Positions 1 through 11,813 of a stretch of DNA of 11,813 nt are shown here, piece after piece (the stretch's first letter is position 1; the number at the start of each line of letters is the position of its first letter). The notes beneath the pieces are model-generated. The model ran no database searches. It saw only the letters and a program-made list of their open reading frames with translations, and was not told the origin of the DNA. The position numbers and the translations under genes were made by a program. This stretch comes from a virus (lineage: Duplodnaviria > Heunggongvirae > Uroviricota > Caudoviricetes): the IMG/VR virus record IMGVR_UViG_2663763428_000005; one strand, 5' to 3'.

Positions 1-110
1 AGCTAGAAGTTTCAAATGATTAGATATTTAACATTACCCATATTCAATCAAAAAAATAACGCCCTGCCATTTCAAGTAAAAATTACCAATATTTTCAGAT
101 AGTAGTGGCG

Positions 111-1088
111 TTAATTTTCTTCAGTTTTTTTATTTTTTCTTGCAGGAAGTTTAGGCTTATATGCATTAACAAAAAGTTGATATGAATCCTGTAATGATAA
201 TCCGGGAAGGGTATCGTTTTTGGCACTAAATATTGCATAATACTTTTCGTATCGACTTATATCTTTTTCAAACACCCATGTCCATTCAGAATCATATAGT
301 CTTTCCCCTCCTTTTTCCTTATTTTTGTTCTCAACTGTACGATTAATTATAAATTTGAAAACGGTATTATTCAAAGTTCTAATAAAATTCTCAACAATAA
401 ATGCGATTTGCTCGAGATCATCATTATTGAGTATTATCGGTTTTTCTAAGTGCTTCATATGTTCAGCCAATCCTAGTCGGATTGCATTTTTCGAACCCAA
501 CTTACCAAATCGATGAACACAACAATGCCTTAACTCGCAAACTTTCATGAATTCGCTTGAGCATTTCATCATTTCGATTGGTCGTTGTCCTTTCATTCCA
601 ATAATGTCCTTTAATGTTTCAAAAACATTATAAGGGCTTGCCAATGAAAAGTCCTCAAGTAAAGCTTCTGGTAATAACTCCTTTTTATGGTGTTGTGCCG
701 CTGCATAACTAACGGCCTTATCAGAAACTATAGACTGTATATATTCATCATGATTAATTAGATTTCTGATAAGAGCTCGCAAATAACTTTCGGCTGCAGA
801 CACATAACCTAATAACAACAGATGGCTTAATGTGTTTGAAATATCACCAGATCTTAACAAGTGAAGTTGCTTTGTATTAGCTATAAAAAGATCTAACGGG
901 GATTCCTTGCTATCAACAGGTAACTCATTAAATTTTTTGTGTGTCTCAAACGAAAAAACTAGAGCTGGATTACTACATAGTTCAAAAAACTCTCTTCCAT
1001 CTAAGTTATCATGGGTTGCAGTGACAACTGAGGACGCCACATTATGATGAGTGGTCTCTTCATAATCCTCTTTTGATTCTAGTTCCAT
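111..1088 (-). CDS. Hypothetical protein, third gene of the MTase-ATPase operon; possible HEPN-like or other nuclease effector (speculative)
   Basis: Long minus-strand ORF (track 111..1214, which opens on a TTG). In-frame ATGs at 1181, 1148 and 1088; 1088 (MELESKEDYEE...) is chosen because it has a purine-rich stretch upstream and a hydrophilic N-terminus, but the start is uncertain. The ORF overlaps or abuts the upstream ATPase stop at 1159. Contains 'ELRHCCVHRFGK', which fits the HEPN Rx4-6H signature; this short motif can occur by chance. Stop TAA at 111-113. Confidence 0.55.
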   Translation of the reverse strand: MELESKEDYEETTHHNVASSVVTATHDNLDGREFFELCSNPALVFSFETHKKFNELPVDSKESPLDLFIANTKQLHLLRSGDISNTLSHLLLLGYVSAAESYLRALIRNLINHDEYIQSIVSDKAVSYAAAQHHKKELLPEALLEDFSLASPYNVFETLKDIIGMKGQRPIEMMKCSSEFMKVCELRHCCVHRFGKLGSKNAIRLGLAEHMKHLEKPIILNNDDLEQIAFIVENFIRTLNNTVFKFIINRTVENKNKEKGGERLYDSEWTWVFEKDISRYEKYYAIFSAKNDTLPGLSLQDSYQLFVNAYKPKLPARKNKKTEEN

Positions 1089-1158
1089 TTTCCCGACTCT
1101 TTTTAAATTAAACTTTTCAGATAAGAAAGACACGATTGACAAGTACATGCCATCAAAA

Positions 1159-2865
1159 TTAAGACAAAAACTCTTCAACATGTAATAACACTTTGTCCAT
1201 AATTTTATTGGCAATTTTGGGTCCTATTCTGTGAATTTTTCTTAACTCACTCCCAGGGTCTTGTAAAGACAATACATCTCCTATAGTTTTTACTTTTTCC
1301 AGCCCAGATAGTTTTTGCATTTGCCAAGATGTTAGATGTGGTACTTTTGACAGTGGAATAGACATGCACTGATTATAGGCCGACTCATCAATCAATTGAT
1401 TCCCACAATGATGGCAAAATTTTTGATTGTCAGTCAATCGCGGAGTCTTGCAGTTATTGCATGGAGGTAAAGTTAGTTTAAGTCTCGCAAGTTGCTCAGC
1501 ATTGAATAATGATGAAATGTTTCTTCTGACAGGATGCTTAGCATTCTTTCTTAGTATTTTTTGAATAATCTGAGAAGGAGAAAAACCTCTACTTCCTTCG
1601 TTAAACACTCTTTCCTTTATTAATAAAGCATAATGAGGTATATATCTTTCATAAGTACGCCCATCACCATGAGAAATATCAGGAAGATTATAAAAAAGCC
1701 CTGTTTCAATTAATAGCTTAGTGAGTCGAGAAAAATAAACATTATCATTTTTCTCTATACCGATTATGACTTGTTTCTCTTCTTTATATTGGGAGTTACT
1801 TTCCTTGAGTAATTCGACTACTTTTAATAAAAGTGATTCACCTAATGAAACAATGTCAAACAATCGAGGTAGCTTATCTTTTAGTGAACTGTATTCGCTG
1901 AGTCTAAGCTCAACATACCTTTCAATTATTTTATTAAATTTTTGCTGAGTTGTCTGACTTAAAGTTGTTTGATAATCTCTTAACATCATCAAAAAAGAAC
2001 GTGGAATACCAAATGCTGAGAATTTAAATAACTCTTTCAAGTCATCCGGAATGCCATCATACCCAGGAAACCTTGCCTGCGCTATAGCATCCATCACTGA
2101 GGAATAATTAGGGTGCTGTACCGAAATCCAAGCATCAATTGTTTCAGCATCATGAGCAACATGAAACCTTGGGCCATATTCGGTTGTTCCAGGATAAACC
2201 GATGCCTTTAAAGCTATTTTTGAGGTTTTTAGACTACGTACAATATCAAAAAACTCGTAAAGATATTCAGGAGTTAAGCTTATTGCTGCATCGTCTAATA
2301 AAATAATGACTCTTTTACGTTCAAGCCAATCACATAGTGAACTCAACGAGGATATAACAGAAGAAACACTGATCAATTGAACAATGTTTTCTTGTTCTAA
2401 TGATGGCGAAAGACCCTGCTCAAGCCTTACGATTAAATTAATTAGGAACTCTTTATCCGCTATGAGTATCGTTGACAAATCAAGATATTCAGAATCTTCA
2501 ATATCGCAAGCAATTTCATAAGCAGAGAGTAGTATCTTTGCTAATACCCATTTATGAAAGAGATCAATTGCATTTGGTTTATTTTTTAAAAGCGGCTCTA
2601 ACTTAAAATATTTATTAAAAGAAACATAGAGTGGTAATGGTGCGTTATCATCGTTTTTACATTCAACCCAAGCATAACGCATCAAATGTGTTTTACCACA
2701 TCCCCTAGGACCAACTATAAGTTTGATGCCTGGGGATATAAGAGCATTATGTATAATATCGAAAAACTCTCCAGTTCTGATAGTATTATTTTTTATCGTA
2801 TCCTCATCAATATAATCAGCTCGTTCCTCGATAAGAAAATTACTATCTAATTCCACATCAGTCAT
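1159..2865 (-). CDS. P-loop NTPase (AAA+/ORC-Cdc6-like) with C-terminal CxxC...CxxC zinc ribbon and helix-hairpin-helix-like tail
   Basis: 568-aa ORF. Walker A 'GPRGCGKTH' near the N-terminus, Walker B 'VIILLDDA', C-terminal 'CNNCKTPRLTDNQKFCHHCG' (four-Cys zinc ribbon), then a Gly-rich 'RIGPKIANKI' segment typical of HhH DNA-binding motifs. ATG at 2865 overlaps the MTase stop (2858-2860) by 8 nt, indicating translational coupling. Confidence 0.85.
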   Translation of the reverse strand: MTDVELDSNFLIEERADYIDEDTIKNNTIRTGEFFDIIHNALISPGIKLIVGPRGCGKTHLMRYAWVECKNDDNAPLPLYVSFNKYFKLEPLLKNKPNAIDLFHKWVLAKILLSAYEIACDIEDSEYLDLSTILIADKEFLINLIVRLEQGLSPSLEQENIVQLISVSSVISSLSSLCDWLERKRVIILLDDAAISLTPEYLYEFFDIVRSLKTSKIALKASVYPGTTEYGPRFHVAHDAETIDAWISVQHPNYSSVMDAIAQARFPGYDGIPDDLKELFKFSAFGIPRSFLMMLRDYQTTLSQTTQQKFNKIIERYVELRLSEYSSLKDKLPRLFDIVSLGESLLLKVVELLKESNSQYKEEKQVIIGIEKNDNVYFSRLTKLLIETGLFYNLPDISHGDGRTYERYIPHYALLIKERVFNEGSRGFSPSQIIQKILRKNAKHPVRRNISSLFNAEQLARLKLTLPPCNNCKTPRLTDNQKFCHHCGNQLIDESAYNQCMSIPLSKVPHLTSWQMQKLSGLEKVKTIGDVLSLQDPGSELRKIHRIGPKIANKIMDKVLLHVEEFLS

Positions 2866-4066
2866 GTTTAATCCTTACAAGATGTATTTTTTTTAATGCA
2901 TCCATTGTAATATGTTGTGCGGCTACACCACTACTCGCTCGAGATAATTCCTCTTGCCCATCTTGAGAACAAAGAAAATCAAATAGTTTTTTCTTATCTC
3001 CACCAGAGGCTCGTATCAGAAAAATACAGTCACTGATATAAGAATAGCCGCTCTCAACAAACAATATTTTTTTATGAAAATTTCGCCCAACTCTTGCTAT
3101 TAATATATCACCAGGCTTAGCAATGACATCTAATTTTGATGGCTTCAATTCTTCTACAGAGTTGCAGTGGAATTTAATGTACTTTTCATCACCACTAAAT
3201 TTTGTCGTATGAAAAACATGTTCCGTAATTTCCTTTGAATTAAACCTACCTCTAAAAATTGAAATATTTTTAAGCATCCCTATTGTGCTAAACCCTTTAC
3301 CTTCATTTTTATTATAATGATAAGAGTAGTCCATTCTCTCAACCGCATCTTCTTTTCTAATTAAAACAGAAGGCGACAATTCCCCATCTTTAGTTATACA
3401 ATGTAATTGTATTTTATGATGAGGCATAATTTTTTTATTAAAAATTAAAATATGTGTTTTAGCCTCTGTCCTTTTGAAGATATTCCTAGGCAATTCAATG
3501 ACTTTTGTAATTGAATGTTCATTCAATAAATATCGTCTTAAACCTATAAACTTTCTTGCTGTAAATATACCATCAGGTAAAATTATTCCAGCCTCACCGC
3601 CCTTTTTAAGAAACCTGATGACTTGAGATATAAATATTATCTCTGCTGGGACATATTTTGAGACAGATATATATTTATCTGCGCCAATCTCACTAATGAT
3701 TTTAAAATAATCATCCCTCCATTCAGGGAGAGTGAATGGAGGATTACATACTGCAACATCAAAATTTCCTTGATGTCGGGCAAGCATTTCAGGAAATGAA
3801 TGAACAAGGGCATCTGTTACAATATGAGTAAGATTATCACATACTTTTTTTGACATCCGAGATTCTATATCCAAAGAATATGCTTCTGCATTCTTCCATC
3901 GGTCTAAAGCAGCATAGGTTAAGCTCCCCTCACCAGAAGCTAAATCAATAATATTATTGACTTTTTCAGCTTTCATCTGAGAAACCAATAATGCACTTAT
4001 GGATTCTTTTGTATAGTATCTTCCGAGACTATCTCGTTGTGTGAATGGCATATAGTTACTGTTCAT
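2858..4066 (-). CDS. N6-adenine DNA methyltransferase (gamma-class, TaqI/Eco57I-like catalytic domain plus C-terminal putative target-recognition domain)
   Basis: 402-aa ORF. 'GRYYT' N-terminal motif (as in HsdM/PglX-type MTases), SAM-binding motif I 'DLASGEGS', catalytic motif IV 'NPPF' ('VAVCNPPFTLPEW') about 65 residues later. The roughly 250-aa C-terminal remainder is long enough for a target-recognition domain. First gene of a 3-gene coupled operon. Confidence 0.9.
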   Translation of the reverse strand: MNSNYMPFTQRDSLGRYYTKESISALLVSQMKAEKVNNIIDLASGEGSLTYAALDRWKNAEAYSLDIESRMSKKVCDNLTHIVTDALVHSFPEMLARHQGNFDVAVCNPPFTLPEWRDDYFKIISEIGADKYISVSKYVPAEIIFISQVIRFLKKGGEAGIILPDGIFTARKFIGLRRYLLNEHSITKVIELPRNIFKRTEAKTHILIFNKKIMPHHKIQLHCITKDGELSPSVLIRKEDAVERMDYSYHYNKNEGKGFSTIGMLKNISIFRGRFNSKEITEHVFHTTKFSGDEKYIKFHCNSVEELKPSKLDVIAKPGDILIARVGRNFHKKILFVESGYSYISDCIFLIRASGGDKKKLFDFLCSQDGQEELSRASSGVAAQHITMDALKKIHLVRIKHD

Positions 4067-4307
4067 TTTTTATACTCATCTTAAGTACGCTACCGCCCTA
4101 GGCGTTACGGCTACCCAAGAACCAACACAATCATGTAATCTATTGATATTTATAAACTTATCTTCAAATCTTTCAGCCCTAGAACCTAAAAAAGATAGAA
4201 GTGTAGGTAACAAAGGGCGATCGGATATAGGGCTAATGTTTAAACTTAAGTATCAAAATATACGGTTTTAGGTCATTTTCCTAATCAATCCTATCATCAC
4301 GTCAAAT

Positions 4308-5516
4308 CTACTTTGTAGCGTTCACCAGCAAAGAAATACATGAATTATGATTAGCGTTTATATAGTCCGCATACCACTGCATCATCTCCCTACGTCCTTC
4401 CAAATACAACGCATGGTTATACGTCCCACGAATCGCATTTTTATCAACGTGAGCCAGCTGGGTTTCAATCCACGCTGTATTGAAACCTTCCTCATGCAAA
4501 ATCGTACTCATCGTGTGACGGAAACCATGCCCCGTTACCCTCCCCGTATATCCAATCCGCTTAAAAACCTGATTAATACTCGCTTCACTCATCGTCTTGC
4601 GGGGATCATTACGTCCCGGGAACACCAGTGGATATTGCCCTGACATCACTTTGAGTTGCTGTACGATTTCCAGCGCTTGGGTAGAGAGGGGGACAAGGTG
4701 AGGCCGTTTCATCTTCATACGCTCGGCAGGTATCTCCCACACCGCTTTTTCAAGATCAAACTCACTCCAGAAAGCACCTCGGAGTTCGCCAGTGCGAACT
4801 CCCGTGAGGATCAGCAGACGTGCCGCAAGAACAACTAACGGGCTTCCTGTGTAGCCTGCGAGAGCTTTAAAAAAGTCTGGTAACTCCTCAACAGTAAGGA
4901 AGGGATAATGCTTCGATTCATGCCCTGACATCGCGCTGGTAAGATCCGCTGCAGGATTGTATTCCGCACGACCGGTTACGATGGCGTAACGAAAGACTTC
5001 GCTGCAACGCTGGCGAACCTTCTTGGCCTTCTCTGTCGCGCCACGGCTTTCAATTCGACGCAGCACATTAAGCAGAACCAGCGGTTTGATTTCATTCACC
5101 GGTTGTTGGCCAATATAGGGAAAAATATCTTTATTAAAGGCTTCGATAATGTCCGAGGCATAACCTTCTGACCATCGGCTCACCTTCGTTCCATGCCATT
5201 CAAGTGCCACAGCCTGAAACGTATTATTTAGCTGCACATCTCGAACCAGCTTTTCTTCTTTCTTGGCAAGCGATGGATCGATACCTTCGGCAAGCTTTTT
5301 CTTGGCGTCGTCACGCAGTGCCCTCGCTTGTGCAAGGGACACTGCCGGATAGACACCAAAGGCCATACGCTTCTCTTTTCCATTGAAGCGATATTTCATC
5401 CGCCAGTATCTGGAACCAGAGGGAACAACCTCAAGATACAAACCAGCACCATCTGCCAGCTTATAGGCTTTCTCTCTGGGTTTAGCTGCGTCTACCTGTC
5501 GCGCATTAAGTTTCAT
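4308..5516 (-). CDS. int: Tyrosine site-specific recombinase, P4-type (tRNA-targeting) integrase
   Basis: N-terminus 'MKLNARQVDAAKPREKAYKLADGAGLYLEV...' is the canonical P4-like integrase arm-binding region. C-terminal catalytic residues are in 'HGFRHTMST' and '...GTYNHALYLEGRREMMQWYADYI' (R...HxxR...Y). ATG at 5516 has an AGGGAG Shine-Dalgarno upstream; the ORF track extends to 5555 with alternative upstream starts. Lies 164 bp downstream of a tRNA 3'-end repeat in the same orientation. Confidence 0.92.
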   Translation of the reverse strand: MKLNARQVDAAKPREKAYKLADGAGLYLEVVPSGSRYWRMKYRFNGKEKRMAFGVYPAVSLAQARALRDDAKKKLAEGIDPSLAKKEEKLVRDVQLNNTFQAVALEWHGTKVSRWSEGYASDIIEAFNKDIFPYIGQQPVNEIKPLVLLNVLRRIESRGATEKAKKVRQRCSEVFRYAIVTGRAEYNPAADLTSAMSGHESKHYPFLTVEELPDFFKALAGYTGSPLVVLAARLLILTGVRTGELRGAFWSEFDLEKAVWEIPAERMKMKRPHLVPLSTQALEIVQQLKVMSGQYPLVFPGRNDPRKTMSEASINQVFKRIGYTGRVTGHGFRHTMSTILHEEGFNTAWIETQLAHVDKNAIRGTYNHALYLEGRREMMQWYADYINANHNSCISLLVNATK

Positions 5517-6472: not shown

Positions 6473-7318
6473 ATGACTGCACCAGTAATTAGTTTTATCA
6501 ATATGAAAGGTGGGGTTGGTAAAACAACTTTATGCGTTGGGATTGCTGAGTTTTTAGCCAACCATATGGGGCGCAAGGTTCTAGTTATCGATATTGATCC
6601 TCAATTTAATGCCACTCAGTCCTTAATGGGGCATTATGATCGAGTAGAAGAATATATGACTGCCCTTCGCCCTAATAATCAAACCATTCGAAAGATTTTT
6701 GAGCTTCCAAATTCATTAATGGAAGATGAAAAGAAAGTGACACCAGAACAGGTCATTACTAAAGTTTCAGACAATCTTGATATTATCTTAGGTGATATAA
6801 ACATTATCTTTGATACTAACCAAGAGGGTATTAGAATAAAAATGTTGCGTAAATTCATCACCGAAAATGACTTAAAAGAAAGTTACGACTATATCTTTAT
6901 CGATAGCCCCCCAACAATCTCATTATTTACAGATACCGCACTCCTTGCTTCTGATTATTATCTTACTCCGGTTAAAATTGATCACTACTCGGTGCTTGGA
7001 GCAAGCAGTTTAAATAGCGTTATAAGAAATATGCGCACACATCATGAGAAAGAAATCAAGCAAGTCGGTTACATTTATACAAACACTGATGCTGAAATGA
7101 CCAATAAAACAAGGGAAATTAAAGAACAATTCGAAAACCATACTCAATTTACAAATTTTTATTTCTTTGAAAATCAATTAACCTACGTGCGTGATTTAAT
7201 GGTAGGTTATCAAGGAAATATTCCTTCTTGTTATTCAAAGTCACGCCAAGATATAGAAAAGATCTGTAACGAATTTATTAACAGAGTGGCTCACTTGGAA
7301 GGTAACACAAATGAATAA
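6473..7318 (+). CDS. ParA/MinD-family (deviant Walker A) ATPase
   Basis: 281-aa ORF. Deviant Walker A 'NMKGGVGKTT', 'VIDIDPQ' motif, Walker B-like 'IFIDSPP'. Good Shine-Dalgarno. Stop overlaps the next gene's start (ATGAATAA). Confidence 0.88.
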   Translation: MTAPVISFINMKGGVGKTTLCVGIAEFLANHMGRKVLVIDIDPQFNATQSLMGHYDRVEEYMTALRPNNQTIRKIFELPNSLMEDEKKVTPEQVITKVSDNLDIILGDINIIFDTNQEGIRIKMLRKFITENDLKESYDYIFIDSPPTISLFTDTALLASDYYLTPVKIDHYSVLGASSLNSVIRNMRTHHEKEIKQVGYIYTNTDAEMTNKTREIKEQFENHTQFTNFYFFENQLTYVRDLMVGYQGNIPSCYSKSRQDIEKICNEFINRVAHLEGNTNE

Positions 7319-7709
7319 ACAATTAATTAAAGCGCTCAATAAAGCTAATAATATGCCCATGACCAAAGAAAACTTCTTAGGCTTGGTAATTATGTTGATT
7401 CTTTCAAAAGAGGTTTTTAGATCAAATTTTGATGTTAGTAAATTTATTAACAAAACCTTCAAAATATCTTTTTTGAATTATGCTGTACGGTCAAGAACTT
7501 TGATGTGCGCTAAAATTTGCAGACATATTAATGAATTAAGTGAGAATGACATAAAGATGGCTTATACGCATTTCTTAAACAACATTAACACATTAGACAT
7601 TATTTTTAATGATGCAAATAAAACAAGCCAAAAACCCACATCTAAAAGCAAGCATGCTATAAGGAATTTAAATATTTGGATTAATGCAAATAAAAAGGAA
7701 GAAGAATAA
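7311..7709 (+). CDS. Hypothetical protein (132 aa), coupled to ParA-like ATPase
   Basis: ATG at 7311 preceded by a 'GGAAGG' Shine-Dalgarno and overlapping the ParA stop; Lys/Asn-rich basic C-terminus. No recognisable domain by eye. Its stop overlaps the next start (TAATG). Confidence 0.6.
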   Translation: MNKQLIKALNKANNMPMTKENFLGLVIMLILSKEVFRSNFDVSKFINKTFKISFLNYAVRSRTLMCAKICRHINELSENDIKMAYTHFLNNINTLDIIFNDANKTSQKPTSKSKHAIRNLNIWINANKKEEE

Positions 7710-8374
7710 TGCTCACGCAGGATCCCTTCAACATTGGAAGAGATGTAAATTATTTTAGAGCGGAGGTGCAAAAGCACCTCAGAACCACTGATGAAATAAA
7801 CAAATCAGTATCAATATTTAGGCAAATAAGTCTTTGTAATACAATTTTAAGTCACAATCCTAATCTAAATCACTCTTCTTATATAAAAGGTTTTATATAT
7901 GATACCTTAAACTCCTTAATTGCCATTATAAAAAAAAGAGAACGGTATCTCCAACTGAACTTCCGCTCAATGGTGGAGCATGTGGCCAGAATAAGCCTCA
8001 ATAAGAACTACAATGGTGGGGATTTTGACCAAACTGTACGTCGTAGAGACTTTGACTTCTTAAAAGCCCAACAAGTCGATGAAGGCTGGTCTTATTTACA
8101 TAATGTCTATATCAACGCCTGTTATTATGTTCACTCCTCCCCCCAAGCGAACCTAAATGTTACATCAACATTTATATCACTTATGGAGGGAGATTGTAAT
8201 TCAACACAGCATAAAATGGTGAAAAAACTTCATGAGGTAGTATCGGCGCTGATGAGAATCATTATAAAGTATTATCATCAGCATATCTCAAACATTTTCT
8301 TTAGAAACAAAAAGGATTTAGAGAAAATAATGGGAAAAAGCCTTTATTCATATTATACCAGCTTAGACAATTAA
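7709..8374 (+). CDS. Hypothetical protein (221 aa), third gene of the ParA-like operon
   Basis: ATG at 7709 preceded by an 'AAGGAAG' Shine-Dalgarno and overlapping the previous stop (TAATG). Contains 'NFRSMVEHVAR' (an Rx4H-type motif of unknown significance). No recognisable domain. Confidence 0.65.
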   Translation: MLTQDPFNIGRDVNYFRAEVQKHLRTTDEINKSVSIFRQISLCNTILSHNPNLNHSSYIKGFIYDTLNSLIAIIKKRERYLQLNFRSMVEHVARISLNKNYNGGDFDQTVRRRDFDFLKAQQVDEGWSYLHNVYINACYYVHSSPQANLNVTSTFISLMEGDCNSTQHKMVKKLHEVVSALMRIIIKYYHQHISNIFFRNKKDLEKIMGKSLYSYYTSLDN

Positions 8375-8439
8375 TTCTCTCATATTCATTGCGTAGAGCA
8401 TAAATATCTATCTAACCACCTAAAATGCCAGAAAATCTA

Positions 8440-9170
8440 GTTGTATACCGGTGCGAAAATATCTCGCGTTTCATCTGCCACTGCTGCTGAATGCCCTGCC
8501 CAGCGAAACAGAGTGTTTCCTTCCCGTCTTTTGCATTGAGGTGCTCCAGCACGCTCATTAACTTTTCGCTCCCAGGACCCAGCGCGTTATCGTCGAATAG
8601 GTTAGGGCATGCTCTGACTGAAGAAGTCCCCCAGCATTACCCCGGCTTTCTGATATCGGTGTCCGTCTTTCCATATTGCATCCAGACTCCCCGTTGCTAC
8701 TGCAATGATATCCCGACTGTCCTGTGTCGGGATGAGCAGCTTCACCGACGCGCTGTTACAGTAGTACGACTCGTTCAACGCAAAGGGTATCGTGTAAAAC
8801 CGATGATGACACTGCCGGCAATCAGCACTGACGTCAGCAAACGTGAGAAAGAACAGATAAGCCGAACGATTTAGGAAATGTTTGAAGAGACTGATATGTG
8901 GATGGTTTCAGTTTAAACGCCTTGAACCGTCATATTACCTAAGTACAATCCGCTGTGACTGGCAATCATTCAATACTTGCACTATCAAAAGTGCATCAGC
9001 CAACCGCAGCACGTCTTGCATACGACCTGTCTGCGGTTTCAATCACCTCTCACCACCAGTCCCATCAATAATAATTAAACAGCGCCTAAACAAAATAAAT
9101 AACAACAAGTCAACAACCTCGACAGGATGCCGATGGGATGATGAAGAGATAAGAAAGAATAACTAGTAAA
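8440..9170. other. GC-richer segment without a convincing gene; possible degraded gene remnant
   Basis: Composition differs from the flanking AT-rich genes. The plus-strand ORFs here (8491..8874, 8882..9166) have odd Cys/Ser/Pro/Arg-rich compositions. On the minus strand, a 48-codon frame runs from an internal Met to a stop near 8420 (MSVLEHLNAKDGKETLCFAGQGIQQQWQMKREIFSHRYTTRFSGILGG); an upstream stop was not located. Confidence 0.25.
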
Positions 9171-9304
9171 GCCCTAAAACGTCAGCGTTCAGACGCGTTT
9201 TTTACTTAACCGGTAACAAATACGTTGTATCATAGCAACATAAAATGATTGTTCTAAATCAGATTAACTCCTCACTTTTGTACAATGTCGCTTACAGGTA
9301 TACC

Positions 9305-11194
9305 ATGAAATCCGAGACGCTAACTGTCCAACAACTTTTTCAAGACCGCCGACAATACTGTGTTCCATTCTATCAACGTGCCTATGTATGGACTCAGCGA
9401 AACCAATGGTCAGCTCTACTGGAGGATATCCTAGAGAAAGCACAATCCCGGCTCTCGGGTACAAAACCAACTCCCCATTTCCTTGGTGCAGTGGTACTGG
9501 AACCTCAACCAAAAAAAGGATTATTCGGTGTAGATTCCATACATATTATTGATGGTCAGCAACGATTGACCACTCTTCAATATGTTCTGGCATCCATCCG
9601 ATTAGCATTACGTGCGACAGATCTTTCCAACTTAGAGCCTCTCATTTCGTCTTGCCTGAAAAACTCAAACGAAGACACAATGCGAAATAAAGAAGTAGAG
9701 CGCTTCAAACTGTGGCCAACTTTTCGGGATCAAACTCATTTTATTCAAAGTTTTAATGTTGAAAATATTGACGATATCCGGAATGTATTCTCTGATAGTT
9801 TCACGCAGCATGGTACGTTGCGTAAGCATTTTAATCACCCGCCATCACTAGAAGCATTATGTTTTTTTACTGAAGCCTTTATAAAGTGGATTAAAATAGA
9901 AAATCACTCACCACGAGAAAATGCTGTAGCATTAATTGAGGCTGTCTTGACGGATCTGAAACTAGTAAGCATATTTCTCGAGGCTGAAGATGACGCTCAA
10001 ATAATTTTTGAAACATTAAATGGCAGAGGTGCGGAACTTCATGCCACAGATCTTATTCGCAATTATATTTTTATGTGCGCTGAACATGAAAATATTAATG
10101 CTGTTGAATTATATGAGAATGAGTGGAAGATCTTTGAAGATACGTACTGGTCAGAAAGACAACGTCGTGGTCGTATTAATAAACCACGCATGGAGTGGCT
10201 AGTGCATGCAACATTGCAATCAGAAAGGCAACGTGAAATCGATCTGTCTCGTCTTTACAATGAGTATCGTGATTATGTAAGTAAGGACTTGCCTTCACAA
10301 CGAGCAGATCTGCAAGTAAAGCGCCTCAAACAATATGCATCACAATATAAAGAATTGGTTGGTGGTTTTGGCACAACCCCCATCTCACACTTTGGACATC
10401 GCATCGCAGCCTATGATGTGACGACACTTTATCCGCTTGCTTTGTTCATTTCGATAGCTAACATCGCCGATGATGAGAAAGCAGCCATGTATAATGATCT
10501 TGTCTCCTACGTAGTACGAAGAGCCGTATGTGGCCTGACGCCAAAGAATTACAACAATGTATTTATGAATGTATTGCGGCACTTGTCTAAAACAGAAATT
10601 TCCAGTGTTGAGTTACGTAATATCCTCAATAGCTTAAATGGCGAAGCCTCACGTTGGCCTGGGGACTCAGAATTTCTCAACGCTTGCATCAATGCTCCAC
10701 TTTATCCTGGCAGGCTCGACGCACCGAAAATGCGCTCAATGTTAACGGAACTTGAAAGAGAACTTTGTCGCCAAGTGAAGACAGAGAAGCCTGATGTTCC
10801 AAATCTTTCTAACCTCGATATCGATCATCTTATGCCTCAAAGTTGGTATTCCTGTTGGCCTCTCGAAAATGGTCATATAGTGACAAATTCAGATGCTACG
10901 GTATTGAACCAAATTGTTCTGTCTGGAACCGATCTTACCCCAGAACAGCTACTGGTAAGGAAACGGCAACAAGCGATAGCTACGTTGGGAAATCTAACTT
11001 TGCTTAACCTTAGCGTAAACCGTTCTGTTCAGAATGCTGTATTTCTGAAAAAACGTGATGCTCTCATCGTCCACACCAATCTACGACTGAACATTCCACT
11101 TATAGTTAAGGATAAATGGGATGAGGATGAAATCCTGGAGCGGGGTAAAAAGTTGGGGGAAATTGCATTGAAAGTATGGCCAAAACACGATTAA
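9305..11194 (+). CDS. GmrSD-like DUF262/DUF1524 protein; putative type IV (modification-dependent) restriction endonuclease or related defence nuclease
   Basis: N-terminal DUF262/ParB-like signatures 'VPFYQRAYVW' and 'IIDGQQRLTTL'. C-terminal DUF1524/His-Me-finger-like 'DIDHLMPQSW' and 'GNLTLLNLSVN'. Start uncertain: ATG at 9245 (longest ORF, no Shine-Dalgarno) or ATG at 9305 (AGG about 9 nt upstream, motif spacing typical for the family). Confidence 0.85.
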   Translation: MKSETLTVQQLFQDRRQYCVPFYQRAYVWTQRNQWSALLEDILEKAQSRLSGTKPTPHFLGAVVLEPQPKKGLFGVDSIHIIDGQQRLTTLQYVLASIRLALRATDLSNLEPLISSCLKNSNEDTMRNKEVERFKLWPTFRDQTHFIQSFNVENIDDIRNVFSDSFTQHGTLRKHFNHPPSLEALCFFTEAFIKWIKIENHSPRENAVALIEAVLTDLKLVSIFLEAEDDAQIIFETLNGRGAELHATDLIRNYIFMCAEHENINAVELYENEWKIFEDTYWSERQRRGRINKPRMEWLVHATLQSERQREIDLSRLYNEYRDYVSKDLPSQRADLQVKRLKQYASQYKELVGGFGTTPISHFGHRIAAYDVTTLYPLALFISIANIADDEKAAMYNDLVSYVVRRAVCGLTPKNYNNVFMNVLRHLSKTEISSVELRNILNSLNGEASRWPGDSEFLNACINAPLYPGRLDAPKMRSMLTELERELCRQVKTEKPDVPNLSNLDIDHLMPQSWYSCWPLENGHIVTNSDATVLNQIVLSGTDLTPEQLLVRKRQQAIATLGNLTLLNLSVNRSVQNAVFLKKRDALIVHTNLRLNIPLIVKDKWDEDEILERGKKLGEIALKVWPKHD

Positions 11195-11215
11195 TGCAAT
11201 TAATAAAATGATTAT

Positions 11216-11241
11216 AGCGGCCTTACATTAGTAAGGCCGCT
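11216..11241 (+). terminator. Stem-loop, probable transcription terminator downstream of the GmrSD-like gene
   Basis: Perfect 11-bp inverted repeat 'AGCGGCCTTAC-ATTA-GTAAGGCCGCT' 22 nt after the stop codon. There is no strong T-tract on the plus strand; the minus-strand flank is T-rich, so it could act bidirectionally. Confidence 0.5.
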
Positions 11242-11446
11242 ACTCACTATTAAATCCTTTAATTTGCAACAAGAACAGCAGTGTCAGCCCTAGGTTTCGG
11301 ACTTTGTACCGCTTATCTTGTCTTCAAAATCAGCTCGCATCCTGCACAGTTCAGCGCATTACGTTGTAGATCTGTGTTCTGGTCATTTGTTGATACGCGA
11401 ACATAGCCAATAAGCATGATAGCTCCTCCTGACAAAAACAGGAACG

Positions 11447-11687
11447 ATGCCATTTGCGCGCTATTTCTGCATTTTCATAAACGTTCAATTGGGAGAAGCG
11501 GCAAAACGGGATGTCGGAACCGGTAATAATCAACTCCCGGACATGTCCGCATTTGGTATGTCGCGAAACGGACAAACTGCCTGGGATATTCTCCCAAATG
11601 GTATGATTCGACAGGTTGGTACTGTGACACTGACGCCTGTTGGTAATTTCAACGCAATTACTCTTGGTGGAGTGCTGTACTACACCC
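11447..11687 (+). pseudogene. ORF truncated by IS insertion (unknown product)
   Basis: The plus-strand ORF 11447..11716 runs straight into the IS terminal repeat; its last 9 codons (TLNRPGNPGD) are encoded by IS sequence, so the native 3' end is missing. Product not recognised. Confidence 0.3.
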
Positions 11688-11813
11688 TGAACCGCCCCGG
11701 GAATCCTGGAGACTAAACTTCCTGAGAAAGAGGTAAACAGGATGACTAAAAATACTCGTTTTTCCCCCGAAGTCCGTCAACGGGCAGTCCGTATGGTTCT
11801 GGAAAGTCAGAGC
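11688..11813 (+). mobile_element. Left end of an IS3-family insertion sequence (IS629/IS1203/IS3411-like), continuing beyond the window
   Basis: Terminal sequence 'TGAACCGCCCCGGGAATCCTGGAGACTAAACTTCCTGAGAAAGAGGTAAACAGG' followed by the ATG of orfA; this matches the left inverted repeat and leader of IS629-group elements as remembered. Confidence 0.75.
11742..11813 (+). CDS. IS3-family transposase OrfA (N-terminal HTH part), partial: runs off the window end
   Basis: ATG at 11742 with a 'GAGAAAGAGG' Shine-Dalgarno. Translation 'MTKNTRFSPEVRQRAVRMVLESQS' is the characteristic N-terminus of IS629/IS1203-type OrfA. Not in the ORF track because no stop lies within the window. Confidence 0.8.
   Translation, partial: MTKNTRFSPEVRQRAVRMVLESQS

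Follow-up and report, generated by a model that had tools for sequence, protein, structure and literature searches.

BrxC, SspC and DUF499/Hma are ORC/Cdc6-clade ATPases wired to DNA-modification enzymes, the DUF499 proteins often being fused to a HEPN domain (PMC12839542, PMC10853773, PMC3710099). HEPN RNases wired to restriction–modification (R-M) systems and to ORC/Cdc6-type ATPases, as in PrrC–EcoprrI and DUF499/Hma, have been proposed as suicide effectors (PMC3710099, PMC12839542), and PrrC–EcoprrI provides the established precedent for HEPN nucleases that are embedded in R-M loci and held inactive by them (PMC3710099). The linkage of ORC/Cdc6-type ATPases to methylases is already known; the ATPase described here belongs to none of BrxC, SspC or DUF499/Hma.

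The protein is encoded in an 11,813-nucleotide stretch of DNA (IMG/VR record IMGVR_UViG_2663763428_000005), which we call the window; positions are counted from its first letter and all features named below lie on the minus strand. Its gene (1159–2865, ATG start) specifies a 568-residue AAA+ ATPase of ORC/Cdc6–STAND type with a winged helix, a zinc ribbon and a helix-hairpin-helix (HhH)-like tail, identical to RefSeq WP_000132880.1, which is annotated as “ORC-CDC6 family AAA ATPase” or “zinc ribbon domain-containing protein”. We read it as the sensor or switch of a small mobile defence-type cassette, with a HEPN protein as obligate partner and a DNA adenine methyltransferase as the usual third component, and give this reading a probability of roughly 0.4. 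It is based on a conserved ATPase–HEPN module with intact motifs, conserved DNA-binding modules, a recurrent link to methylation, an island-type context and the HEPN precedents above. Literature searches by accession, RefSeq name and domain combinations found no published description of the cassette, and it is absent from the DefensePredictor supplements.

Comparison with described systems

Hma, or “Type-1 BREX-related”, systems resemble the cassette in that a STAND/ORC-Cdc6-type ATPase with winged helices, a HEPN RNase and an N6-adenine methyltransferase share one operon, and an R-M-like logic has been proposed there as it is here (PMC12839542, PMC3710099). An Hma system is made up of a DUF499 ATPase (often with an N-terminal HEPN domain), an N6-methyltransferase and a helicase-nuclease, whereas in our cassette the HEPN domain is a separate protein and the sole predicted nuclease, with no helicase-nuclease beside it. 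The ATPases also differ, a zinc ribbon and HhH tail on a protein of 568 residues standing against the wHTH / alpha+beta / wHTH / RRM array of Hma, and the methyltransferase is an HsdM-like N6_Mtase with its own TRD and not a DUF1156 protein. DUF499 was absent from the Pfam table of the window protein at E ≤ 0.1 and was not among the 25 most frequent of 41 Pfam families over 33 ATPase homologues. With no PADLOC Hma match and no conserved helicase, membership of Hma/Type-1 BR was rejected.

BrxC is a protein of 1200–1300 residues that works with PglZ, BrxA/B and BrxL, none of which accompanies the present ATPase. No BrxC, PglY or PglZ model matched the ATPase or the HEPN protein, no PglZ occurred among 135 flanking genes, and the cassette was not assigned to BREX; the PglX model matched the methyltransferase weakly (E = 1e-7, far below cut-off). 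SspC works with phosphorothioation machinery, and here too the partner genes are missing and no sequence model matched, so that membership was likewise rejected. A BREX-like exclusion, in which methyltransferase and ORC/Cdc6-type ATPase would stop phage DNA from replicating without cutting it (the proposal made for PglX–BrxC) and the HEPN protein would be a back-up suicide effector, nevertheless draws on the fact that BREX, Ssp and DUF499/Hma all pair ORC/Cdc6-clade ATPases with DNA-modifying enzymes, often with a HEPN back-up (PMC12839542). We consider it quite improbable: no PglZ, BrxA/B, BrxL or helicase is conserved nearby, PADLOC and NCBIfam gave no match to Brx or Hma ATPase models, and the invariant partner of the ATPase is the HEPN protein and not the methyltransferase, which makes HEPN a primary component instead of an accessory.

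The initial annotation had called the ATPase unlike the motors of known R-M classes. It does lie outside the helicase and McrB motor families, but BrxC, SspC and DUF499/Hma had been overlooked. Type I, Type III and ISP R-M were set aside because the window operon has no HsdR or Res gene and none is conserved in 80 related loci. Resemblance to McrBC type IV is confined to marginal P-loop similarity (profile E 0.2–0.5, Foldseek E ~1e-3), there is no McrC, and the partner is HEPN.

PrrC–EcoprrI offers a likeness of a different kind, an NTPase-regulated HEPN RNase that is tied genetically to DNA methylation and restriction and for which an abortive output has been proposed (PMC3710099). PrrC, however, fuses an ABC-type NTPase to HEPN and needs a complete type Ic R-M system, whereas the ATPase here is a separate AAA+ protein with DNA-binding domains of its own. 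From Avs and bacterial NLR-like STAND proteins the cassette differs in having no TPR, LRR or WD repeat sensor but a compact DNA-binding array, in having its effector on a separate polypeptide, and in its methyltransferase linkage. The archaeal Walker-type ATPases PABY2304 (2qen) and SSO1545 (2fna), of Pfam PF01637 (ATPase_2), share 12–16% identity with the window protein and have neither zinc ribbon nor HhH tail; PF01637 itself scored 23 bits against a cut-off of 33.2, the relationship being structural only.

The remaining candidates were rejected as follows. For MADS, mad2 scored 58.6 bits against the methyltransferase (cut-off 720) and mad8 aligned only with P-loop residues 45–64 of the ATPase (E = 0.0036). 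PADLOC HEC-02A/B, mad8 and PDC-M49A and NCBIfam DS41_1 and Sll1717 gave short P-loop-only matches far below their cut-offs, and PADLOC PD-T4-6 a zinc-ribbon-only match that was equally short and far below cut-off. HEC-02A is an ABC ATPase paired with a NERD nuclease. Tn7 TnsC and Mu MuB gave no model match, and the linked transposase and target-selector genes of those systems were not found.

Domain make-up of the ATPase

Full-length homologues of 550–590 residues occur in at least six phyla, so that the architecture is not that of a chance open reading frame. The AAA+ α/β core (2071–2748, residues 40–265) contains a helical insert between strands 2 and 3 (residues ~86–180), part of which (residues 121–180, nucleotides 2326–2505) varies more than any other stretch of the protein. 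Walker A (GPRGCGKT, 2689–2712) and Walker B (ILLDD, 2290–2304) are both intact in the translation, with G52, K58 and T59 of the former and D191 and D192 of the latter invariant in 80/80 homologues; ILLDD is the STAND-like “hhhhDD” form of Walker B and not the “DE” form. A helical lid and, after it, a long helical hairpin follow in the AF2 model (1780–2070, residues 266–362). R289 of the lid (GIPR) is again invariant in all 80 homologues and is a candidate arginine finger or sensor. The P-loop core with its two Walker motifs, the helical lid, the helical insert after strand 2 and the C-terminal winged helix place the protein in the ORC/Cdc6–STAND superfamily.

Sequence and structure searches agree with this placement. 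Pfam PF24389 (ORC-CDC6-like) scored 37.7 bits against a cut-off of 27 (E = 1.4e-9), above the gathering threshold, and matched 33/33 homologues; membership is that of the N-terminal ATPase region, the alignment covering only residues 40–122 against profile positions 27–121 of 571. In Foldseek the best matches of the AF2 model (pLDDT 85.5) were ORC4 and archaeal ORC1/Cdc6 (E = 1e-6 to 1e-5), the alignments to Orc1/Cdc6 running to ~450–480 columns and so extending beyond the ATPase core. Against the PDB, neither single-sequence nor profile searches found a significant match for the ATPase or the HEPN protein. The AAA+/ORC-like core proposed in the initial annotation is borne out by these results. 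Its further suggestion of a DNA-tracking ATPase is not: the nearest folds (ORC/Cdc6, STAND/NLR, TnsC and BrxC) are ATP-dependent switches, loaders and oligomerisers and not translocases, and the modelled fold points to a switch or loader.

The C-terminal part forms a compact array of putative DNA-binding modules, and the description of the protein as a nucleotide-binding protein with such modules is supported by the predicted domain make-up. The winged helix-turn-helix (1606–1779, residues 363–420) has strand-helix-strand-strand topology in the AF2 model, H411 is invariant, and H399, R403 and R407 are conserved in 75/80, 79/80 and 76/80 homologues; this module had been overlooked in the initial annotation. 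The zinc ribbon noticed there is confirmed as a Cys4 ribbon (1390–1470, translation LPPCNNCKTPRLTDNQKFCHHCGNQLI) of pattern CNNC...CHHC (residues 469–487), its four cysteines (C469, C472, C484 and C487) invariant in 80/80 homologues. Pfam zinc-ribbon families matched 21–29 of 33 homologues, Zn_Ribbon_1 matching 29.

The C-terminal tail (1162–1389, residues 493–568) folds into two helix-hairpin-helix units in the AF2 model, with helices at 513–520, 528–532, 537–542 and 549–567, and G548 is conserved in 77/80 homologues. Pfam HHH_8 matched at E = 0.053, HHH_5 matched 7/33 homologues (best E 0.0026), and the best PDB matches of the tail profile were the N-terminal (HhH)2 domain of RAD51C and the HhH domain of DisA (E 0.2–0.3). 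The tail that the first reading had named HhH is therefore a real, conserved helical domain, whereas its HhH identity is weakly indicated, if consistently so (E 0.05–0.3). Tail domains of this kind are of non-sequence-specific DNA-binding types, and this counts against our reading, since it leaves the sensing of methylation state by the ATPase without explanation.

Partner genes and their linkage

Downstream, the product of gene 3 (111–1181) is a HEPN-fold protein of 356 residues as annotated, conserved from near residue 75, with a HEPN core at ~116–284. The HEPN assignment is based on fold and motif, namely a four-helix up-down bundle and a conserved Rx4-6H motif. This motif, RHCCVH (513–530, R218...H223, read from the translation), has R218, H219 and H223 invariant in 78/78 homologues, and RHxxxH is also kept in the HEPN proteins of a distant clade (clade 2). 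No Pfam HEPN family matched any of 32 gene 3 homologues, even at E ≤ 1, and the UniRef name of one of them, RiboL-PSP-HEPN, was dropped for this reason. Gene 3 encodes a predicted RNase, the putative effector of the cassette. Judged by the conservation of Walker A and B, R289 and the four cysteines (80/80) and of Rx4H (78/78), both enzymes look active.

The annotated HEPN start overlaps the ATPase stop by 23 nucleotides (1159–1181), where most relatives have an overlap of 4 or 1. The two genes stand side by side in the same orientation in 79/80 related loci (clade 1), drawn from Proteobacteria, Bacteroidota, Myxococcota, Planctomycetota, Bacillota and Acidobacteria, and the pair is present in 7/7 sampled loci of the more distant clade 2. 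Pairwise distances of the ATPase correlate with those of the HEPN protein at r = 0.86, against 0.60 for the methyltransferase. The constant, translationally coupled partner of the ATPase is the HEPN gene, and the methyltransferase is only its usual neighbour. The related loci contain no conserved fourth gene, and those of clade 1 no restriction enzyme.

The methyltransferase gene (2858–4066) lies upstream of the ATPase and encodes 402 residues, a gamma-class N6-adenine DNA methyltransferase as predicted from models: N6_Mtase (E = 9.8e-23) and Eco57I (E = 6e-11) in Pfam and, over the full length, PADLOC MTase_II PDLC03285 (E = 1e-237). A catalytic domain with an NPPF motif (residues 1–255) is followed by a TRD-like domain (256–402), of which residues 256–400 weakly match an S-subunit-like TRD, and the nearest solved relatives are HsdM proteins and BsaXI. 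We looked for a hypervariable TRD as a sign of diversifying specificity and found none, mean pairwise identity being 0.34 in the TRD-like and 0.37 in the catalytic domain. On these sequence identities, the TRD-like domain does not resemble the TRDs of typical R-M or BREX systems, which diversify, and this counts against our reading.

The methyltransferase stop and the ATPase start share exactly the 8 nucleotides reported initially (ATGACTGA, 2858–2865). This overlap had been taken to imply stoichiometric co-expression; it suggests translational coupling instead, and it is not conserved, with gaps of −38 to +103 nucleotides across relatives. Coupling of the ATPase to a methyltransferase holds insofar as the gene is operonic with the methyltransferase and gene 3, but HEPN is the tighter partner. 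An HsdM-like methyltransferase occurs in 73/80 clade 1 loci (~90%), usually overlapping or within 15 nucleotides, and its position varies from upstream to downstream or divergent. About 6/80 loci have no recognisable methyltransferase nearby; these pairs lie between housekeeping genes and form stable sub-lineages with all catalytic residues intact, so that the pair seems able to function, or at any rate to survive, with no self-marking enzyme linked to it, a further point against our reading. In clade 2, four of the seven sampled loci have no recognisable methyltransferase near the pair, another partner is a beta-class N6/N4 methyltransferase, and in locus L088 a C5 methyltransferase overlaps the ATPase start by 4 nucleotides and is accompanied by an Eco47II-type restriction enzyme. 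One protein fuses a methyltransferase catalytic domain to a HEPN domain.

These linkage data bear on whether methylation matters at all. The pair could be a methylation-independent abortive-infection system of Avs/NLR type, the ATPase sensing a generic infection cue (phage DNA ends, replication intermediates or a phage protein) and activating the HEPN RNase, with the methyltransferases as frequent but functionally separate neighbours, either orphans or parts of R-M systems sharing the same defence islands. The intact lineages without a methyltransferase, the clade 2 loci without one and the STAND-like fold all fit such a scheme, and the variable insert 121–180 could be a fast-evolving recognition surface. 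Yet in 73/80 loci, from different phyla, the methyltransferase beside the pair is of a single family, and this linkage, with its close spacing and its correlation of 0.60, goes far beyond co-residence in islands; the C5 overlap in L088 and the methyltransferase–HEPN fusion also argue against separate functions, and we regard this alternative as rather unlikely. Even if the methylase proved irrelevant, the cassette would still add a new STAND-like sensor that binds DNA, and its effector would be a new HEPN family.

Alternatively, the methyltransferase (or an R-M complex) could keep the ATPase–HEPN pair latent in the manner of PrrC until a phage anti-restriction protein or DNA mimic frees it, which would make the enzyme a bait or monitor more than the source of a self mark. 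Apart from the PrrC–EcoprrI precedent, the association with three unrelated methyltransferase families, once together with a classical restriction enzyme, would fit the guarding of any R-M system present, and a conserved TRD-like domain is odd for a pure specificity determinant. In clade 1, however, a restriction enzyme that could be guarded is missing, several lineages keep the pair on its own, a purely protein-guarding role has no need of the conserved DNA-binding array, and an interface that should adapt to each methyltransferase family is hard to reconcile with a fixed ATPase architecture. A guarding role is for these reasons unlikely, somewhat more so than a methylation-independent one.

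Proposed mechanism and genomic context

The cassette looks like an R-M system in which an RNase replaces the DNA-cutting enzyme. Because it contains no DNase, it is not expected to restrict DNA in the strict sense. In the mechanism that we propose for the sensor/switch reading, the methyltransferase would mark the host's own DNA and the ATPase would bind DNA via its winged helix, zinc ribbon and HhH tail. On DNA judged to be foreign—most simply unmethylated DNA, perhaps recognised in a complex with the methyltransferase—ATP binding would then change the state of the ATPase or make it oligomerise, as in ORC/Cdc6 and STAND proteins. The assembly would bring HEPN subunits into an active arrangement, and the RNA cutting that follows would stop the growth of the infected cell, or of a cell that took up the element. 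To the observed domain make-up, intact catalytic motifs, fold assignments and conserved gene linkage, this adds four points that we infer: that the ligand is DNA, that methylation is the self mark, that ATP drives the assembly and that RNA is cleaved as the output.

The specific proposal of a DNase-less R-M-type system, in which the ATPase reads methylation directly or via the methyltransferase, assembles and turns on the HEPN RNase, is held more tentatively than the sensor/switch reading as such and is, taken singly, somewhat doubtful. If true, self and non-self would be told apart by DNA methylation with NLR-style abortive infection as the output, and the same pair could plug into gamma N6A, beta N6/N4 and C5 methyltransferases. 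Epigenetic self-marking (R-M, BREX) and switch-ATPase suicide (STAND/Avs, HEPN Abi) would then be joined in three small genes. Lineages with the methyltransferase, without it or with another family form a natural experiment on the coupling between self mark and effector, a question that has yet to be settled for BREX and its relatives. Since clinically relevant Escherichia coli lineages carry the cassette natively, it can be tested in its own host, and it is small enough for structural work.

R-M-like modules can serve as addiction systems, and the cassette adjoins an integrase in E. coli. A non-defence role could accordingly be pictured, either as a replication, transposition or partition ATPase of a mobile element (ORC-, TnsC- or MuB-like) or as a trio that stabilises its island by post-segregational killing. 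We consider it very unlikely. The conserved neighbours include no transposase, replication or partition gene, and integrase (8/135), rve (2/135) and resolvase genes are only sporadic among the flanking genes. The constant partner is a predicted RNase, several genomes carry the module between housekeeping genes, and the cassette was not found in any of 50,697 phage records and is rare on plasmids. The context thus also speaks against a transposition or replication ATPase, the outcome that had initially been named as a refutation.

In keeping with a mobile element, the cassette is found in only 148 of 5426 complete E. coli genomes. A scan of positions 1–4400 for promoters and terminators gave nothing above shuffled expectation. 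Two E. coli genomes carry an IS903B insertion between integrase and methyltransferase that disrupts no gene and is for that reason uninformative on the inactivation of a component. Flanking genes in other genomes are heterogeneous, with integrases the commonest. Directly upstream of the cassette in the window lies a P4-type tyrosine integrase (4308–5516; Pfam Arm-DNA-bind_3, Phage_int_M and Phage_integrase), which in other E. coli genomes abuts tRNA-Thr beside proA according to RefSeq annotation, and the E. coli cassette is located close to a GmrSD type IV enzyme.

Architecture of the ATPase and its relatives

The ATPase, a 568-residue protein of the ORC/Cdc6-STAND type encoded on the minus strand at 1159-2865, where the initial annotation had placed it, has a fixed architecture with three conserved nucleic-acid-binding modules. 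The Pfam family ORC-CDC6-like scores above its cut-off, yet aligns only with residues 40-122; ATPase_2, AAA_16, NB-ARC and several zinc-ribbon families match weakly. Among 33 homologues, ORC-CDC6-like and ATPase_2 match all, Zn_Ribbon_1 29, nSTAND3 22 and HHH_5 seven. The homologue alignment yields a confident AlphaFold2 model (pLDDT 85.5, pTM 0.81), in which a long helical insert separates strands 2 and 3 of the P-loop core. The model also has a lid, a hairpin of helices, a winged helix (residues 363-420) that had gone unmentioned, a Cys4 ribbon and a tail with two helix-hairpin-helix (HhH) units. Walker A, a Walker B of "DD" type, R289 and the four cysteines do not vary across 80 homologues. 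The feature is real and its description as an AAA+/ORC-like core with zinc ribbon and HhH tail is correct at the domain level; the HhH call is the weakest piece, with HHH_8 at E 0.053 and the best matches to the tail profile (RAD51C N-terminal (HhH)2 and the DisA HhH domain) only at E 0.2-0.3. By fold, the protein is nearest to uncharacterised archaeal PF01637 ATPases.

By far the most variable stretch is the helical insert (residues 121-180; window 2326-2505), with a mean pairwise identity of 0.20 against 0.5-0.58 for the AAA+ core; unlike the insert, the putative DNA-binding tail is well conserved. The insert may form a fast-evolving recognition or counter-defence surface. A stand-alone 97-residue homologue of the zinc-ribbon and HhH tail (31% identity to residues 454-568) is encoded on Piscirickettsia salmonis plasmids (locus L085, 4543-4836; 38 records) beside a DNA/RNA non-specific endonuclease gene, so the tail also occurs as an independent module.

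Scanning 1.84 billion representative proteins exhaustively with HMMER brought up only 341 relatives with E <= 1e-3, of which 113 reached E <= 1e-30; those aligning over their full length are almost all 550-590 residues long. The ATPases therefore constitute a small, discrete family of fixed architecture without effector fusions. Two clades can be distinguished, with about 39-53% (clade 1) and about 29-33% (clade 2) identity to the E. coli protein. On Planktothrix agardhii plasmid p2, a remote relative of the core (L084, 4489-6102; 28% identity over residues 15-338) has no tail; its operon also encodes a PAPS-reductase-family protein, a DEAD/DEAH helicase and a further ATP-binding protein, and the setting looks like a Dnd/Ssp-like modification context.

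A HEPN protein as the invariant partner

Neighbouring genes were surveyed at 80 loci on one-genome-per-species contigs from Proteobacteria, Bacteroidota, Myxococcota, Planctomycetota, Bacillota and Acidobacteria. Directly downstream of the ATPase, 79 of them have a homologue of gene 3 (111-1181, minus strand), a HEPN-fold predicted RNase, the sole exception being on a 1.6-kb contig. The distance from ATPase stop to gene 3 start is mostly -4 or -1 nt; in the window, the annotated gene 3 start overlaps the ATPase ORF by 23 nt. Pairwise divergence of the two proteins correlates at r = 0.86, a value reached in none of 500 permutations. The same order, overlapping or adjacent, was found at all seven sampled clade 2 loci; for six of these, homology was tested by hmmsearch (E 1e-30 to 1e-46, RHxxxH kept) and, for L087, by hhalign (99.9%). 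Gene 3 is the invariant, translationally coupled HEPN partner of the ATPase, with its catalytic motif intact. The initial annotation had coupled the ATPase to the methyltransferase (MTase) instead: that linkage stands, with an 8-nt gene overlap (ATGACTGA) exactly as described and an MTase homologue at 73 of 80 loci, but the key partner was misjudged, MTase divergence tracking that of the ATPase more loosely (r = 0.60).

A census of 135 flanking genes revealed no conserved fourth member; the commonest among them were integrases (8), resolvases (3) and rve transposases (2). The cassette of MTase, ATPase and gene 3 is rare, occurs in at least six phyla, and its distribution is mobile and patchy. 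The metagenome protein P0158 (522 residues, 3.9-kb contig) joins the catalytic domain of an MTase, 36% identical to the window's MTase over residues 3-231, directly to a HEPN protein with neither target-recognition domain (TRD) nor ATPase between. It is a fusion that arose naturally or else the product of a deletion, and stands out because a 2013 HEPN survey found no HEPN-methylase fusions.

A recurrent but dispensable methyltransferase

The MTase (2858-4066, minus strand) carries a gamma-class N6-adenine signature with an NPPF motif (N6_Mtase, E 1e-22), and a REBASE-derived model for type II methyltransferases matches it over the full length (E 1e-237). The last 150 residues are similar to the TRD of a type I S subunit, and the nearest solved structures are HsdM proteins and BsaXI. 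Across 73 homologues the TRD-like part is near-constant in length and, unexpectedly, no less conserved than the catalytic part (0.34 vs 0.37 mean pairwise identity); the specificity domain lacks the diversification typical of type I, IIG or BREX enzymes. By an ORF-level order call the MTase is upstream at 51 loci, downstream of gene 3 at nine and divergent at three, seven further loci not being placeable by this simple rule.

Six loci hold the ATPase-gene 3 pair without an MTase, flanked by housekeeping genes (e.g. valyl-tRNA synthetase, threonine synthase, AIR synthase). These pairs form conserved sub-lineages in Bacteroidota (61-73% ATPase identity) and Thiotrichales (60%) with all catalytic residues intact, and four of seven sampled clade 2 loci have no recognisable methyltransferase. 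One main rival reading takes the pair as a methylation-independent, Avs-like sensor and effector with methylases as frequent neighbours. Elsewhere in clade 2, one locus has a beta-class N6/N4 methyltransferase and another an Eco47II-type restriction enzyme together with a C5 cytosine methyltransferase gene, the stop of which overlaps the start of the ATPase. A PrrC-like guard of a methylase or R-M system is a further main rival. Linkage to a DNA methyltransferase, from one of three families, is recurrent but dispensable.

A central part in modification-based defence is already known for ORC/Cdc6-clade ATPases: BrxC and BrxD of BREX, SspC of the phosphorothioation system Ssp, and the DUF499 ATPases of "Hma" or "Type-1 BREX-related" systems, in which an N6-methyltransferase and a helicase-nuclease accompany the ATPase, itself often with a HEPN domain at its N terminus (PMC12839542, PMC10853773, PMC3710099). 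Because these are known, the earlier statement that the ATPase is unlike known R-M classes was too strong. Membership of BREX, Ssp or DUF499/Hma was rejected in each case: no model matches the ATPase, the domain array after the core is another one, PglZ, helicase and Dnd-type partners are absent from the flanking genes, and the MTase belongs to a different family. BREX-like exclusion with HEPN as back-up is likewise a main rival reading. In searches of the literature and of defence catalogues, the cassette appeared in no paper and no entry, nor was its accession mentioned; the defence models of PADLOC v2 and NCBIfam do not include it either. It is most aptly described as an uncharacterised, minimal methylase-linked ORC/STAND-ATPase-plus-HEPN cassette, directly testable in E. 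coli.

We favour, at roughly 40%, a model in which a DNA-binding switch ATPase activates the HEPN RNase and methylation marks self. Structural relatives suggest that the ATPase would be an ATP-dependent switch or oligomeriser, not a translocase, whose assembly would switch on the RNase; the active site of HEPN enzymes generally needs dimerisation (see also PMC13092281). If methylation by the linked MTase marks self-DNA, the trigger would be foreign, unmodified DNA. Since no DNase is present, RNA cleavage and growth arrest would be expected rather than DNA restriction. The MTase-less lineages and the conserved TRD fit this methylation-gated model least well. Some defence or conflict role for the cassette is much likelier than this specific model, and we consider it probable.

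Island setting and neighbouring modules

A chromosomal segment with 100% identity to the window's left 4.3 kb occurs in 148 of 5426 complete E. coli genomes, single-copy in each; a P4-type tyrosine integrase there abuts tRNA-Thr, beside proA. The cargo is AT-rich (30-37% G+C vs about 50% for the integrase). No tRNA was found within the window. Two E. coli strains, 164 and WCHEC005784, carry an IS903B insertion (L086, 5718-6686) within the 240-bp integrase-MTase spacer, the presumed cassette promoter region; it leaves all three genes intact.

The right-hand part is common to 46 genomes, where a lambdoid prophage remnant follows; in the remaining carriers tRNA-Thr adjoins the integrase, so that the genome of the window has a rearranged junction. 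In this part, 8400-9200 and 11200-11813 hold only pseudogene fragments in RefSeq (DUF4113/UmuC C-terminus, DinI, recombinase, gp53-like tail-fibre piece). Between the integrase and the GmrSD gene, an AT-rich segment (6473-8374, plus strand) encodes a ParA-family ATPase (281 residues) and two overlapping small ORFs (132 and 221 residues) without family matches. It may be another small defence-type module, since the 2013 survey described the HEPN family MAE_18760 as operonic with ParA/Soj ATPases; by eye, no clear Rx4-6H motif was seen in it. A full-length GmrSD-type (DUF262 + DUF1524) type IV restriction enzyme (9245-11194, plus strand; PADLOC mREase_IV E = 0, 1436 bits), related to HEC-06 (E 4e-53), brings the count to two or three defence-type modules inside 11 kb.
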